Shown here: positions 7,814 to 45,910 of the stretch, piece after piece
Position numbering within the stretch: the first letter of the stretch is position 1
Layout of the letters: each line of letters begins with the position of its first letter
Assembly (NCBI RefSeq): GCF_025370785.1
Contig: NZ_JAMXFA010000001.1
Location: 107,902 to 171,901, forward strand
Source: Laspinema olomoucense D3b
GTDB taxonomy: Bacteria; Cyanobacteriota; Cyanobacteriia; Cyanobacteriales; Laspinemataceae
Reading direction: 5' to 3'
Length of the DNA stretch: 64,000 nt
The notes under the pieces: generated by a model
Database searches by the model: none
Told to the model about the DNA's origin: nothing
What the model saw: only the letters and a program-made list of their open reading frames with translations
Program-made: the position numbers and the translations under genes

Positions 7814-7956
7814 GTTGAAGGGATAACGGTTCATTTCCGAACCGGAATCCATTCTCCGAATCATGCAGGAGGGGCGCTCTGCGGTGCGCCCTGGACTGTC
7901 TAGGGAAGAAACCCGCAAGAAACCCGCACCCTGGAAGCGGGCTAAAACCATCCAGA

Positions 7957-8163
7957 AACCCGCACCCTGGAAGGGTGGGGCTATATGAACAAAGCCCGAG
8001 AAGCGCGGGCTAAAGAGAAAATTTTAAAAACTAAATGGGGTATGAATCGTTATCCCCCGTTCACAGCAAATCATGCCCAATTCGGTTATTAAAAGTCGAT
8101 TTTCTGTATTAGCCTGCGTAGGCAGGCTTTGTCCGTAGAGCCCCACCCTTGAGGGTGCGGGTT
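7957..8163. mobile_element. MITE-like element with ~25-bp terminal inverted repeats
   Basis: The left end aacccgcaccctggaagggtggggct (7957-7982) pairs with the right end agccccacccttgagggtgcgggtt (8139-8163) with a single mismatch. The internal core agcccgagaagcgcgggctaaagagaaaa...ttttaaaaac is shared with the MITE at 62631-62951. A direct repeat of agaaacccgcaccctggaag lies upstream. Confidence 0.45.
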
Positions 8164-39912: not shown

Positions 39913-40224
39913 ATGGAACTGCAACTCGAATACTTTTTAGTTTTGGCAGCGGCCTTGTTCTGCATTGGCATTTATGGCTTGATTACCAGTCGCAACGCCG
40001 TCCGGGTGTTGATGTCGATTGAGCTATTGTTAAATGCAGTGAATTTGAATTTAATCGCCTTTTCTAATTTCCTAGACTCCGCTACAATTAAGGGTCAGGT
40101 TTTTGGGGTGTTTGTGATTACTGTGGCGGCAGCAGAAGCGGCAGTAGGTTTGGCGATCGTCCTGGCTATCTATCGGAACCGGGATACGGTGGATATGGAG
40201 CAGTTCAATCTCCTGAAATGGTAA
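39913..40224 (+). CDS. ndhE: NAD(P)H-quinone oxidoreductase subunit 4L (NuoK homolog)
   Basis: It is 103 aa with three TM helices and ends ...EQFNLLKW. Confidence 0.9.
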
Positions 40225-40255
40225 GAAGAGTCTGAGTCGCGAGGCTAGGACTCTA

Positions 40256-40297
40256 TTAAACCGGGTTTTTTAAAAGAGACCCGGTTTCTAATTTTTT
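40256..40297 (+). terminator. rho-independent terminator after ndhE
   Basis: The hairpin aaaccgggt...acccggttt is followed by CTAATTTTTT. Confidence 0.5.
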
Positions 40298-40577
40298 AGG
40301 TGTCGAGAGAAAATTTTCAACAGCGATCGCCAAGATGTCGAGGCGAAACACCTTAAGAGAATAGGCGGCAAAAATGTAGAGACGCCCAATTCCACAGATT
40401 TTTGAAGAGGGGAGGGGCTACTACAACAAGAGTTAGAAATAAATCACCGGGCTGAACGAACAATCGTTAGCTGAAGGATAATAAACCGTAGGAATTCGTA
40501 CAATAACTCATGGGCCGACTGGATAAACTGATGAATGCCCAGAAAAGAACATAAAACGGTTAGGGGGTTAGTCTCAA

Positions 40578-41498
40578 GTGCAGCTTAAAAATGCAATTAT
40601 TGCTCATAAAGCCGGAGATGACCTATCTCGGCGGTGGGCTGATCGATGCGCTCGGGAGTTGGAAAATCGCGGGTGTCATGTTTTGGTTGGACCCAGTGGG
40701 TCTAAAGATAATCCCTATCCCGTTTTTTTGGCTTCCTCAACCAGTCCAATTGATTTGGCGGTGGTGTTTGGGGGGGATGGGACGGCCCTTGCAGCGGCTC
40801 GACAACTTGCGCCGGAGGGAATTCCGATGTTAGCGGTCAATGTGGGCGGGCATCTGGGGTTTATTACGGAACATTTTGAGGAATTTAAAGATACTGAACG
40901 AGTTTGGGATCGCTTGTTAGAGGACCGCTATGCGATTCAACGCCGGATGATGCTGCAAGGACGGGTTTATGAGGGGCATCATACGAATATGAAACCGGCG
41001 AGCGATCGCTTTTTGGCCTTAAATGAAATGTGTGTCAAACCTGCCGCAGCGGACCGGATGATCACCTCGATTCTGGAAATGGAAATTGATGGGGAGGTGG
41101 TGGATCAGTATCAAGGGGATGGTCTGATTGTGGCAACCCCTACGGGATCAACCTGCTATACGGTTTCGGCGAATGGCCCGATTATGCATGATGGGATGGA
41201 GGCGATCGCCGTGACTCCGATTTGTCCCCTGAGTTTGTCCAGTCGTCCGATTGTGTTACCACCAGGAGCCGTGGTCAGTATTTGGCCTTTAGCAGACCCG
41301 GATTTAAGTACAAAGTTGTGGATGGATGGGGTAATGGCTACCTCAATTTGGCCGGGACATCGGGTGGATGTCCGGATGGCAGACTGTCGGGCTAAGTTTA
41401 TTATTTTACAGGAAAATTATTCCTATTATCAGACCTTACGGGAAAAGTTACAATGGGCAGGAGCAAGAATTAAATATAATAATAATCACCGCATTTAA
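40578..41498 (+). CDS. nadK: NAD kinase
   Basis: The motifs GGDGT and NEMCV are present, and the start is a GTG at 40578. Confidence 0.88.
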   Translation: MQLKNAIIAHKAGDDLSRRWADRCARELENRGCHVLVGPSGSKDNPYPVFLASSTSPIDLAVVFGGDGTALAAARQLAPEGIPMLAVNVGGHLGFITEHFEEFKDTERVWDRLLEDRYAIQRRMMLQGRVYEGHHTNMKPASDRFLALNEMCVKPAAADRMITSILEMEIDGEVVDQYQGDGLIVATPTGSTCYTVSANGPIMHDGMEAIAVTPICPLSLSSRPIVLPPGAVVSIWPLADPDLSTKLWMDGVMATSIWPGHRVDVRMADCRAKFIILQENYSYYQTLREKLQWAGARIKYNNNHRI

Positions 41499-42355
41499 AG
41501 GCGGCAAAAAACCATGCGATCTCCTGAATAACCCTGGCAATTTAGGGGGAATAAAAAAGGCGATCGCCTGGGTTTTTGATTAATTTAGCCTCATTTTTTC
41601 CAAAAGTTTACACCGCCGGGAAATCTCATCCCCGAATCTTCAAAATGACTCAGGTTTATGGCCCCGGCGGTTTCAACAGTTTTCAAGCAGAATGTAGGGT
41701 CAAACTTGCAACATTAAGGATGAAGAATAACCCGAGATTTCCCTGTAAGTGGGAGTCATTGTACCCAATTTATCGCTCATGCTTTTGACGCGCTTTTGCC
41801 GATGTAGAGGAGACCCCCCACTGGGGCGATCGCATCGGCGGATTGTTCTTTCGGGCCCGACCCCGGAGACCTTTGTCAAATCTGGACCCTGGCCTTCCCT
41901 CCTCCTAATTTTTTTGTCCCGAGGCGATCGCAGAGGACAAGGGTGAGCAGACGAGTTCGGGGTAGCATCCGCTGGACTCACTACAGACGGGAGGCACCTC
42001 ATAATCACATAAAACCAAGGGTTCAGATTTAATTTGTACCGCCGCTATTAGGGTGGCAGATAAACCCATAATGCTAATCCAAAACAGCCGGTTCATAAAC
42101 GTTTCACTCCACAGCAGATGACTGCCTGATTATTCGGCTGCTGTAGAGCCATTTCCGAAGGAAGCGATCGCCTTAATTTCAACAATCTGCTCAGACTGTC
42201 CTCACAGTGGATCCAAAGCGGGCTGTGCTAACAAAATGGGATTCTGTATTTTAAGCTACAGCACCTCTGGGCAAGGGTGATTATATTGGATTTCTAACAT
42301 ACTTAATAAAATTACATAGACCTGTAGGTCTTTTTAGTAAAGGGATATAAAAGGC

Positions 42356-42393
42356 AATCCCGCCAGACTTGTTCTGGCGGGATTGTCGTTTTT
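42356..42393 (+). terminator. orphan intrinsic terminator in an ORF-free region (candidate sRNA 3' end)
   Basis: The perfect stem aatcccgccaga/tctggcgggatt with loop cttgt is followed by GTCGTTTTT. No CDS lies upstream within 800 bp. Confidence 0.4.
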
Positions 42394-43230
42394 GGCAGGA
42401 GCGTTAAACTTAGGAACCCAGTTTTTGCAAAAATCGTGGAGTCACAGATGTTTTGTCATGGACTTTAACCGAATTGTTCCCCATTATCTCTAAAAAAGGA
42501 ACCCCTGCAGCAAAAAGTGACTGGGGGTTAGCAAAATCTCCTTAAACCTCTTCCTTGCGGGGTAAAACACGAGCGATCGCTGAATTTTTAGCAACCAATC
42601 CCACTCGGTGATATTGGAAGGACTCACAGGTATTTTATAGAGCCGACACCTCGGCAGTCCAGACTTGAATGAGATTTCTCCGGCGGCCCCCTCATCAGCA
42701 TCAGCCTCACCTGTTGAACTCTATCAGAGATTAGCCTCTATAGTAAGCCTCAATCCTTCTGATAATACCATTAATCCCTAGGACCATCTTGCTGGCGAGC
42801 AGCAGTAGGGAGCAAGCTGCTACCCCAGATAAAAATTGTCCAATTCCTGCAAGAGTCGCTATCTCCTAGGTGAGAGCCCCAACCGAGGAGCTTCAGGAAC
42901 CTGTTATAACAAAAGGAACTTGCAGGAGACAAACTGTAGCAATCATTAGCTTCTAAGCGAGAATAATCTCAAAGTGAAAGGATTGAGATCCCATCAGGAT
43001 GTAGATAGTAAAATGTAGGGAATCAATATATCCTAAAATATAAAGGGGAAACCACTTGAACGGGAGGATCAAGGGAGATGTAAGTCTCCGGGGTCCCAGG
43101 AAACCCAGAACCTACCCATTCACCTTTAGGGCAGTGGATGAATGATCGCCTCCCTTACTTGGGTAATGTAGAGGTTAGAGTTGTGGAGTAGCAATGGGTA
43201 ATTGGTTGTCTATATTTCCCCCAACCCTCA

Positions 43231-43833
43231 ATGAACACAGACCCCAAAACTATGATTGAGATATTCGGAGATTTCATTCAAAATCCGCCTTTGGGCACCG
43301 AGTATTTAATTCTGGGATTCTCCCCGAGTTCGGCCTCTATTAAAACTCGCTGGCGAAATAATGGCTTATCAGCGGACTTTGTAGCCAACTACTTATCCAC
43401 TTTTTTTGGTGATAGTGAAAATCAGCAGAATCCCGGGCATAAAAAAGCGGAAAGCGCTGAGATTGTCAACTATATCGCCAATGAGTTATTAGAAAATGCT
43501 ATGAAATTCAGTGATTCTACATTGCCGGATCCCACGACCCTGGAAATTCATTTATATGAAGATTCTATTATCTTAATGACTAAAAATGGTATAAATGCCA
43601 AACAGGATGCGGAGTTGCGGGCCTTCATTGAGCGCTTAACGGTTTCTGAACCGGAAGAGTTGTACCTAGAACAGTTGGAAAAGAATGCAGAAACCGACAA
43701 CCACAGCAATTCAAGAGTAGGTTATTTGACTATTATTAATGATTATCAAGGTAAAATAGGGTGGCAATTTGAACGGACTCCCGAAGAATCTCCAGGCATT
43801 TCTTTGACGACGATGGTTACTTTATTATTGTAA
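43231..43833 (+). CDS. small protein with a GHKL/histidine-kinase-type ATPase N-box (anti-sigma-factor-kinase-like or slr1658-type regulator candidate)
   Basis: The N-box-like motif is ANELLENAMKFSD, and Gly-containing segments occur downstream. The gene is AT-rich and isolated, flanked by a long non-coding region. Confidence 0.45.
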   Translation: MNTDPKTMIEIFGDFIQNPPLGTEYLILGFSPSSASIKTRWRNNGLSADFVANYLSTFFGDSENQQNPGHKKAESAEIVNYIANELLENAMKFSDSTLPDPTTLEIHLYEDSIILMTKNGINAKQDAELRAFIERLTVSEPEELYLEQLEKNAETDNHSNSRVGYLTIINDYQGKIGWQFERTPEESPGISLTTMVTLLL

Positions 43834-44117
43834 TTAAAGTTATTCAGTAAAAAACTTGGATAAAAAAGTAGTAAATAAAGGGCGAGGTTTGGTTTATTTA
43901 TAACGGATATTACCAGGGTTTAATCGGAACAAGCGGATTTTAGGGAGGCAGGGGGAAGGGGGATAAATTTCCGGGAGATTCCTACTCCAAAACCACTTTG
44001 CCGTTTAAAGTTTAGGAACTCCAAGGAGAGCAGTTGCTTTTAAAAAAGGGGGTCAAGGTGAAGTCGCTTTAGTCGCTTTATTGGATGGACTTGATGTCAC
44101 TTCACCCCCTTAGAACA

Positions 44118-44150
44118 TAAAAACCCGGGGTAAAAAACCCGGGTTTTTAT
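44118..44150. terminator. bidirectional rho-independent terminator
   Basis: The perfect stem aaaaacccggg/cccgggttttt with loop gtaaaaa is flanked by A and T runs. It sits between the convergent genes 43231-43833 (+) and 44354-45910 (-). Confidence 0.55.
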
Positions 44151-44353
44151 GTTCTAATATCAAGTCTGTTGGATTAAACTAAAAAAACAGTTTTTCCTCT
44201 TCTCCCCCGGACAGGAATAAAAAATTGGATTCTTTTCTCTCTCCTTTGAGGAGAGGGCGTTAAGAGAGGGGGTTCGGGGGGAAAGGGGGTTAGGTCAGTA
44301 TGGGTGAGGCAGCCAACATGATATAAGGGGTTCATGTGGGAATTGGGGACAAC

Positions 44354-45910
44354 CTAGTTCAGTTGACAGAACTTGCGATCGCGGTCCGAATCCGGTTCTT
44401 GCCAAGAATAGGCAAAGTGACTGACGGAGTTAATCCGGGAAGAATAGCGCCGTAAGGCATACATTTGGTCTTCTAAAGGCGGTCGATTGGTGACTGCAAC
44501 GCCCCAATCTCCAGCTAAAGCCGGGATGACCTCGGTGCCTTCAGGAGCCATGCTTAAAACCCGCTCAACTTCTTCCATAATACAATCAGGTTTTTGGCAA
44601 TTGGCATAAGACATTGGATGCCATTCCATCTCCGGCAAAAAGCGATCCCAAGCTTGTAACCTCGAATCAAATCCCCCTTGACCAACGGGACGATTACCCC
44701 CGGGAAAAAAGACGGCCCCGGAAGGGATTCCTTGAGGTCGAACTTGGTCTACAGCCAGGTGGACAAAATCAATAATTCCTTGCACGGCATGAGCGACACT
44801 GAGATACCAGAGTTGCCATTGTAGGAGGGGCAGACGTTCCCCAGGGGTTCCCATTGTTTTAGCTCCAGGGGGGACATTCCGCCCTTGCCACATCGGTTCT
44901 GCTTCATTGGGATAGAGTGCATCGACCGCAGCAATATCATTCGCGGTAATGGAGCCTTGGGTAACGTAGCGCCGGATTAATTCCTGACCTTTCTGGTTGA
45001 GACCCCGTTGCACGAGGGTTTGCTGGGATGCTTCACTGTAGATCCAGAGGTCCGATGGCTTGGTGACGACGGAAGCAGGGCCGACGCCCCGTAGATAGCG
45101 GACATAATCAAATAACATCCCGTCCGGTTTGCGCTTGAGGATTTCCCGGATCACCCCCGCATAGTCTTGACGCGCTTGAGGACTGTAGGGGTCGATAAAG
45201 GCATGATTGGCATGACTTTGACCGACCTGTTCATGCAAGCTGGGGTCCTGCATGACGGTGAGGGTGGTGTGTCCTTGCCCATTCCGAGCGAGGGCTCCTT
45301 GGCGGTCGGGGAGTTGGGAGTAGCTATAGCCAAAGTTGATGGTGAACAACCAGGCGTAGACCTTGAGGCCGCGTTCTTGGCCTTTTTTGATACCTTCAGC
45401 CAGGAGATCGGCATTTTCATAGCCAGGGACTCGAACGACGGAAGGCCAAGGGGTGTTATTTTCGGCCTGGGGTAGGAGGGCTTGGCCGTCATAAAAGGCT
45501 TCGAGATAGACTTTGTTGTAGCCCTTGTTAACGATTCTATCCATGAGAGCATCTAGGGCTCCGGGTTGGAGATCGCAAGGATACAGGCGTAACCAGAGGG
45601 CTTGATTTTGGGGCCAAGTTTGCTGACGACATTCCTGTAAGCGTTCGGCTTCTTTGACCAGAAAGGCTTGATAGCGATCGCGAGCAGCCTGATCACCTTC
45701 GAGGGAGGCTTGGCGCAGTTGTTCTTTTTCGGCGATATCTGCTGGAGAAGCCAGACAGGACCCTTGAACTTGGGAATGGGCCGGTTGGCTCCAGAATGTA
45801 GGACTCACGATCGCGGTTAGAACCGTTGCCAGTAAACCGCGATAAAAATGCTGCCAGTCAAGCGTCATCGCTGTTTTAGGTTTAAAAGATTTTTTGAGAC
45901 GATTAGACAT
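44354..45910 (-). CDS. GHL10 (glycoside-hydrolase-like 10) family protein, secreted/lipoprotein form
   Basis: It has an N-terminal signal, NKVYLEAFYDGQALLP...LKVYAWLFTINFGYSY and a TIM-barrel-like core. It is a paralog of 24742-25890 and 52390-54126. Confidence 0.65.
   Translation of the reverse strand: MSNRLKKSFKPKTAMTLDWQHFYRGLLATVLTAIVSPTFWSQPAHSQVQGSCLASPADIAEKEQLRQASLEGDQAARDRYQAFLVKEAERLQECRQQTWPQNQALWLRLYPCDLQPGALDALMDRIVNKGYNKVYLEAFYDGQALLPQAENNTPWPSVVRVPGYENADLLAEGIKKGQERGLKVYAWLFTINFGYSYSQLPDRQGALARNGQGHTTLTVMQDPSLHEQVGQSHANHAFIDPYSPQARQDYAGVIREILKRKPDGMLFDYVRYLRGVGPASVVTKPSDLWIYSEASQQTLVQRGLNQKGQELIRRYVTQGSITANDIAAVDALYPNEAEPMWQGRNVPPGAKTMGTPGERLPLLQWQLWYLSVAHAVQGIIDFVHLAVDQVRPQGIPSGAVFFPGGNRPVGQGGFDSRLQAWDRFLPEMEWHPMSYANCQKPDCIMEEVERVLSMAPEGTEVIPALAGDWGVAVTNRPPLEDQMYALRRYSSRINSVSHFAYSWQEPDSDRDRKFCQLN

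Follow-up and report, generated by a model that had tools for sequence, protein, structure and literature searches.

The 64-kb window (i.e. the whole stretch of DNA that was analysed) derives from a filamentous cyanobacterium of the Laspinema type. Its region 41499-43230 is flanked by nadK (40578-41498, plus strand) and by a plus-strand gene at 43231-43833 that is assigned to the slr1658 family (NF052618, E = 1.6e-73). The nadK locus is syntenic across Laspinema, Oscillatoria and Phormidium genomes. For the intergenic comparison, we used eight species-level genomes obtained by a nadK scan, in which the intergenic region is likewise syntenic, together with two loci obtained via the small ORF described below. 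Alignment of the related loci shows intergenic conservation to be concentrated in one block, approximately 41905-42393. Alignability breaks off right after the T-run at 42393, the right edge of the block, and the sequence between the terminator and the upstream region of the slr1658-family gene (42394-42900) is unalignable across species. The conservation that the original prediction proposed to look for in relatives is found in this block, and it is sharply bounded. Direct computation established the sequence elements of the block (Table 1), how they are spaced and conserved, that the hairpins are strand-specific and that the small ORF carries a coding signature.

Table 1 Features of the region between nadK and the slr1658-family gene, with window coordinates.
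Feature	Position	Strand	Description
Compound terminator-like hairpin after nadK	41505-41583	+	two HIP1-like copies pair; inner small hairpin; then GUUUUU
Compound hairpin downstream of small ORF	41611-41672	-	ACCGCCGG...CCGGCGGT / ACCGCCGGG...CCCGGCGGT, inner stem; TTTT run ~41600-41607
63-aa small protein gene	41905-42096	-	hydrophobic N-terminus MNRLFWISIMGLSATLIAAV, then four-cysteine segment
Shine-Dalgarno-like GGAG	42107-42110	-	10 nt upstream of small-ORF ATG; CTCCA invariant (alignment A3)
Predicted NtcA-binding box TGTATTTTAAGCTACA	42245-42260		TGTA-N8-TACA; GTA 42246-42248, TAC 42257-42259
-10 box TATATT (TAN3T)	42282-42287	+	exactly 22 nt downstream of NtcA box
Predicted small RNA, ~100 nt	42294-42393	+	conserved single-stranded 5' segment, hairpin 1, A/G-rich linker, terminator
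Hairpin 1, AGRCC-N4-GGTCT	42318-42331	+	here AGACC-TGTA-GGTCT; then U5
Intrinsic terminator	42353-42393	+	stem 42353-42367 / 42373-42387, loop CTTGT, tail G+TTTTT 42388-42393
Conserved upstream region of slr1658-family gene	42915-43230 (~315 nt)	+	alignment A6

The compound stem that follows nadK (~41505-41578) folds with an MFE of -29.9 kcal/mol (z -3.1), and both copies of the HIP1-like GGCGATCGCC are kept in most species (alignment A1). A HIP1-palindrome hairpin had been placed here at 41560-41580. A terminator-like structure with a U5 tail is indeed present, but it is formed by two HIP1-like copies pairing with each other and not by a self-folding palindrome. In one metagenome-assembled genome (L007, 7000-7295), the sequence after the nadK terminator is unrelated to that of the remaining species and runs up to the contig end, a divergence that may reflect a mobile-element insertion.

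At the other end of the region, the conserved sequence upstream of the slr1658-family gene shows ~80% identity in several species, and contains TAAAAT/TATAAA motifs as well as structured G+C-rich stretches. It returned no Rfam match and is probably the promoter and 5' UTR of the slr1658-family gene itself; it lies outside the small-RNA unit. Phormidium pseudopriestleyi keeps only the last ~55 nt of it, the rest being deleted. Short MITE-like repeats are seen in the post-terminator spacer of two relatives (L004 ~7830-7990 and L005 ~7830-8020; e.g. TAACTGGGTT.GGGGAC...GCCGAATGGGTTGCTAATGG). Further downstream, an 18-bp perfect palindromic hairpin (AGAACAUAAAAACCCGGG...CCCGGGUUUUUAUGUUCU, 44112-44156) between the convergent slr1658-family and GHL10-like genes looks like a bidirectional terminator and is the cause of spurious Rfam matches.

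A conserved small ORF on the minus strand

The original prediction held that 41499-43230 contains no credible ORF. This stands for ORFs of at least 100 aa, none of which is conserved: the only one, a 102-aa minus-strand ORF at 41700-42008, was rejected on account of in-frame stops in other species. It does not stand for a 63-aa ORF on the minus strand, which is intact in 10/10 related genomes carrying the block. Variable columns within this ORF are distributed 19/14/41 over the three codon positions, compared with 32/30/25 and 30/29/31 in the flanking non-coding segments, where codon periodicity is absent. Because the reading frame is intact across species, substitutions are concentrated on third positions and a ribosome-binding site is present, we consider the 63-aa ORF a credible coding gene. 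A 70-aa plus-strand ORF was also rejected, its frame being broken in relatives.

The 63-aa protein begins MNRLFWISIMGLSATLIAAVQIKSEP and has four invariant cysteines in the arrangement C-x7-C-x5-C-x5-C; it is probably exported. Its sequence matches a Laspinema olomoucense protein at 100% identity, and it is annotated as hypothetical both there and in Oscillatoria acuminata. Homologues are restricted to the Laspinema/Oscillatoria acuminata clade. No Pfam or NCBIfam matches were obtained for the 63-aa, 102-aa or 70-aa ORFs, and an exhaustive profile search with the small-ORF family returned its own cluster and repetitive long proteins, nothing else. The compound hairpin downstream of the ORF is moderately conserved, with a few pairs kept through changes on both sides (RNAalifold, minus strand, seven species), and could perhaps act as the terminator of the small-ORF mRNA.

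A predicted NtcA-activated promoter

The NtcA box is the only TGTA-N8-TACA sequence in the 64 kb, with GTA-N8-TAC sites totalling five in the same window. Both the GTA-N8-TAC core and the -10 box are invariant in nine Laspinema-clade species, the first flanking T of the box being altered in one of the nine. The 21-22-nt spacer between box and -10 drifts (57-67% identity in the two most distant species). The most conserved non-coding stretch of the block, TGTATTTTAAGCTACAGCA, includes the NtcA box. The TATATT that had been reported at ~42283 is the -10 box of Table 1. A scan requiring a -35 element found no sigma-70 promoter in the small-RNA start region. A start at 42294 would set the centre of the NtcA box (42252.5) at -41.5. 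In NtcA-activated promoters, the GTA-N8-TAC box is centred near -41.5 (PMC5714215), and the nsiR4 promoter of Nostoc has the same 22-nt spacing from box to -10 (PMC8491059). As judged from sequence, the layout of 42245-42287 is that of the canonical NtcA-activated promoter architecture.

The same elements can be read on the opposite strand. The NtcA box is palindromic, as is the terminator, and both are readable on the minus strand. The -10 box is part of an invariant 8-mer, ATTATATT (42280-42287), which gives TATATT when read on the plus strand and, on the opposite one, a perfect TATAAT (42285-42280). The latter is a candidate -10 for the small ORF, as is a minus-strand TAAAAT (42253-42248) inside the NtcA box. 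Any plausible promoter of the small ORF overlaps with the NtcA box and the shared -10. Since that promoter must lie in or beside these elements, binding of NtcA may lower transcription of the small ORF; that NtcA shuts the ORF off is speculation.

A second NtcA-type signature (GTAGGAATTCGTAC, 22 nt, TAAACT) was observed upstream of nadK, at 40488-40529, and its box is present in 8/9 related species. The start predicted from this signature falls ~40 nt ahead of the nadK GTG, and NAD kinase may be nitrogen-regulated in the Laspinema clade.

Terminator, hairpins and strand of the predicted RNA

The textbook terminator that had been recognised at 42356-42393 is real and consists of a 15-bp hairpin with a T-run. 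Its stem has nine G-C pairs and 13 perfect Watson-Crick pairs at 42355-42385, and encloses a 5-nt loop, so that the G+C-rich stem, short loop and 3' U-tract (GUUUUU) of an intrinsic terminator are all present. The terminator is unique in the 64-kb window, with 0 matches in 100 shuffles, and a dispersed repeat was ruled out after checking 85 loci. The stem is retained in nine species, with 97% of cells paired. The short perfect hairpin described upstream of the terminator was likewise recovered (hairpin 1).

Hairpin loops vary freely among the species, and the pairs that vary carry information on strand. The basal two pairs of the terminator are G·U in 6/9 species and otherwise A-U or G-C, and the third pair of hairpin 1 is G·U in 7/9 species and A-U in the remaining 2/9. 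Read from the minus strand, a G·U pair turns into an A·C mismatch, which makes hairpin 1 and the base of the terminator plus-strand-specific. A change compensated on both sides of a base pair was not found in the nine-species small-RNA alignment, for which the shuffle control was uninformative. The small-RNA sequence of this window folds equally well on either strand, with an MFE of -35.1 kcal/mol and a z-score of -5.45 for the predicted RNA. The predicted RNA is without an ATG. Its conserved unpaired stretches are CUUAAUARAAUUA, UUUUUAG and AUAUAAA. Long-range structures predicted within 42097-42400 on either strand were not adopted, the helices being almost devoid of covariation.

These observations bear on whether the block could instead consist of the promoter, operator and 5' leader of the small gene, with NtcA acting as a repressor, the hairpin serving as an upstream insulating or bidirectional terminator, and no stable small RNA made from the plus strand. 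Such an arrangement would accommodate the reality of the small ORF, the two minus-strand -10 candidates and the additional scoring of the hairpin as a terminator on the minus strand (tail CCTTTTATAT), and NtcA repression via polymerase-incompatible binding positions is known (PMC5714215). We nevertheless regard it as unlikely. The 22-nt geometry from box to -10 exists on the plus strand only, the minus-strand equivalent being GCCCGC, and transcription of the minus strand would place A·C mismatches in the hairpins of 6-7/9 species. Furthermore, the small-ORF leader (42097-42244) is conserved no better than the promoter spacer, whereas conservation of 42294-42393 is above that of the small-ORF coding sequence.

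The degree of conservation was quantified for the two most distant species, in which the RNA body is 83-84% identical, compared with 60-73% for the small-ORF leader and 77-81% for the small-ORF coding sequence; nadK third positions show 71% identity (L009 only, L081 left out). When the six closest species are compared, identity of the RNA body (84-92%) only slightly exceeds that of synonymous sites (82-89%).

A scan of 40000-45000 against Rfam 15 at permissive E-values yielded only noise. The best scores in 42259-42425 were 15-25 bits, against thresholds of 43-74 bits (E 1.5-9), and all were hairpin-driven. Hence the Rfam search suggested by the original prediction, carried out as a covariance-model scan, brought no family near its threshold. 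Our own covariance model of the RNA (R1) matches only this locus within the clade and, in a search of 83 sources that included ~70 nadK loci of other genera of cyanobacteria, detected neither distant homologues nor paralogues. A metagenome scan with the RNA-body pattern came back empty, and one with the 19-nt promoter pattern hit only three unrelated sequences by chance.

The possibility that the region is a decayed pseudogene, raised by the original prediction, or a chance hairpin in neutral intergenic DNA would fit the failure to find a family match anywhere in 41499-43230 and the partly unconstrained spacer at 42394-42900. We give it next to no credence: conservation is sharply bounded, the promoter elements are invariant, codon periodicity is restricted to the 63-aa ORF and the fold z-score given above is strongly negative.

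Targets within the window were sought by complementarity, and none exceeded shuffle level. The adjacency of a protein with a hydrophobic N-terminus and a structured small-RNA gene on the opposite strand brings to mind a type I toxin-antitoxin-like pair, in which the RNA would act as a cis or trans antisense that blocks translation of the hydrophobic small protein. This we consider highly improbable, as the predicted transcripts do not overlap, and the single-stranded parts of the RNA form duplexes with the small-ORF mRNA that do not outscore shuffled queries (fraction of shuffles at least as good 0.76-0.89). In addition, the protein has a conserved cysteine-rich tail of 35-40 aa that is atypical for type I toxins, and P. 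pseudopriestleyi has the ORF without the RNA.

Natural losses in relatives

In P. pseudopriestleyi (L003), the GTA of the NtcA box is changed to GCA (GCA-N8-TAC) and hairpin 1 is disrupted. A deletion corresponding to ~42338 to 43171 takes out the terminator, and the 63-aa ORF is intact. The losses fit together and affect only the predicted RNA gene, and retention of the small ORF despite loss of the hairpin further argues against a block made up solely of small-gene control elements. A different situation is seen in the metagenome-assembled genome L006, which is without the whole small-ORF/small-RNA block. There, a long MITE-like inverted repeat (CTATAGCGAGTCTT...AAGACTCGCTATATAG, L006 1515-1830) occupies the place of the block.

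The P. pseudopriestleyi deletion also places the promoter remnant directly against the 55 nt that precede the slr1658-family gene. Given that promoter and gene are on the same strand, the NtcA promoter could be imagined to drive a long leader of the slr1658-family gene, with the hairpin as a conditional attenuator. Several observations make this very unlikely. The gap from hairpin to gene ranges from 555 to 840 nt across species (838 nt here), and its first 240-520 nt are unalignable and contain MITE-like repeats, while the gene has its own conserved upstream region of ~315 nt. Folding revealed no alternative anti-terminator pairing, and there is no Rfam riboswitch or leader match.

The case for the ~100-nt transcript that had been postulated to run from the TATATT to the hairpin is strengthened, and the original interpretation as a whole is supported in part. 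In its favour are the NtcA box at 22 nt, the invariant core and -10, conservation that ends at the T-run, the plus-strand G·U pairs and the joint loss in one species.

Proposed mechanism

The orphan terminator probably ends a small RNA of ~100 bases that is activated by NtcA. With moderate confidence, we interpret the block ~41905-42393 as two divergent genes, one for an NtcA-activated ~100-nt small RNA on the plus strand and one for the 63-aa protein on the minus strand. We infer that, upon nitrogen limitation, NtcA together with 2-oxoglutarate would bind the box at 42245-42260 and recruit RNA polymerase. The plus-strand promoter, which is -35-less, would then initiate near 42294, and transcription would run to the intrinsic terminator, ending at 42393. 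The resulting ~100-nt non-coding RNA, if made and stable, would act in trans, its conserved single-stranded 5' segment and linker pairing with mRNAs elsewhere in the genome. The minus strand would supply the probably exported, four-cysteine protein of 63 aa.

An extension of the two-gene model, which we regard as distinctly doubtful, is that the locus combines one NtcA box and a shared bidirectional -10 (ATTATATT) into a lineage-specific nitrogen switch. The exported four-cysteine peptide would be made under nitrogen-replete conditions, and a small RNA of an undescribed family under nitrogen limitation. Polymerase would occupy the minus-strand promoter in the former case and the NtcA-captured plus-strand promoter in the latter, so that peptide and small RNA would be mutually exclusive.

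Comparison with known NtcA systems

In model cyanobacteria, NtcA-dependent small RNAs tie nitrogen status to carbon fixation, glutamine synthetase control and arginine synthesis. To our knowledge, few such RNAs are known, and almost none beyond Synechocystis and the Nostocales. The prediction presented here extends from promoter to terminator and comes with nine aligned homologues, making it a directly testable candidate in mat-forming Oscillatoriales, and the homologues provide ready input for comparative target prediction. A conserved and easily overlooked small protein gene is added. If confirmed, the value of the candidate would be incremental and not conceptual.

Established NtcA-dependent small RNAs are NsiR4, NsiR3, NsiR7, Syr6 and Ncr1071 (PMC8491059, PMC5714215). 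The candidate resembles NsiR4 in being a predicted stand-alone small-RNA gene with an NtcA box 22 nt from the -10, and in having a putative unpaired seed ahead of a Rho-independent terminator; an extra short hairpin is a further resemblance, to the NsiR4 of unicellular strains (PMC8491059). Identity with NsiR4 was rejected, the local score being 13 compared with a shuffle mean of 13.3 (determined against 44 nt of Synechocystis NsiR4 rebuilt from published primers). Unlike NsiR4, the candidate is without the CCUCC/CUCC anti-Shine-Dalgarno motif, and at ~100 nt it is longer. NsiR4 adjoins sll1698 or alr3725 (PMC8491059, PMC5714215), whereas the candidate sits between nadK and the slr1658-family gene. 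NsiR4 is also widespread, in contrast to the candidate, which was found only in the Laspinema clade.

With regard to the small protein gene, the arrangement is similar to the NtcA-repressed gifA and gifB promoters (PMC5714215) in that the NtcA box overlaps core promoter elements. In contrast to gifA and gifB, no family match links the small-ORF product to IF7/IF17-type proteins, and repression is in this case purely inferred.

As for the remaining RNAs, the candidate would share with NsiR3 (Nostocales) and with NsiR7, Syr6 and Ncr1071 (Synechocystis) a non-coding nature and an NtcA site in the promoter, a grouping by regulation. None of these four is described in Oscillatoriales in PMC8491059 or PMC5714215. 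Several of them are lineage-restricted, as is the candidate. It is plausible that the predicted small RNA is a lineage-specific addition to the established class of NtcA-dependent small RNAs, and conceptually not a new departure from it.
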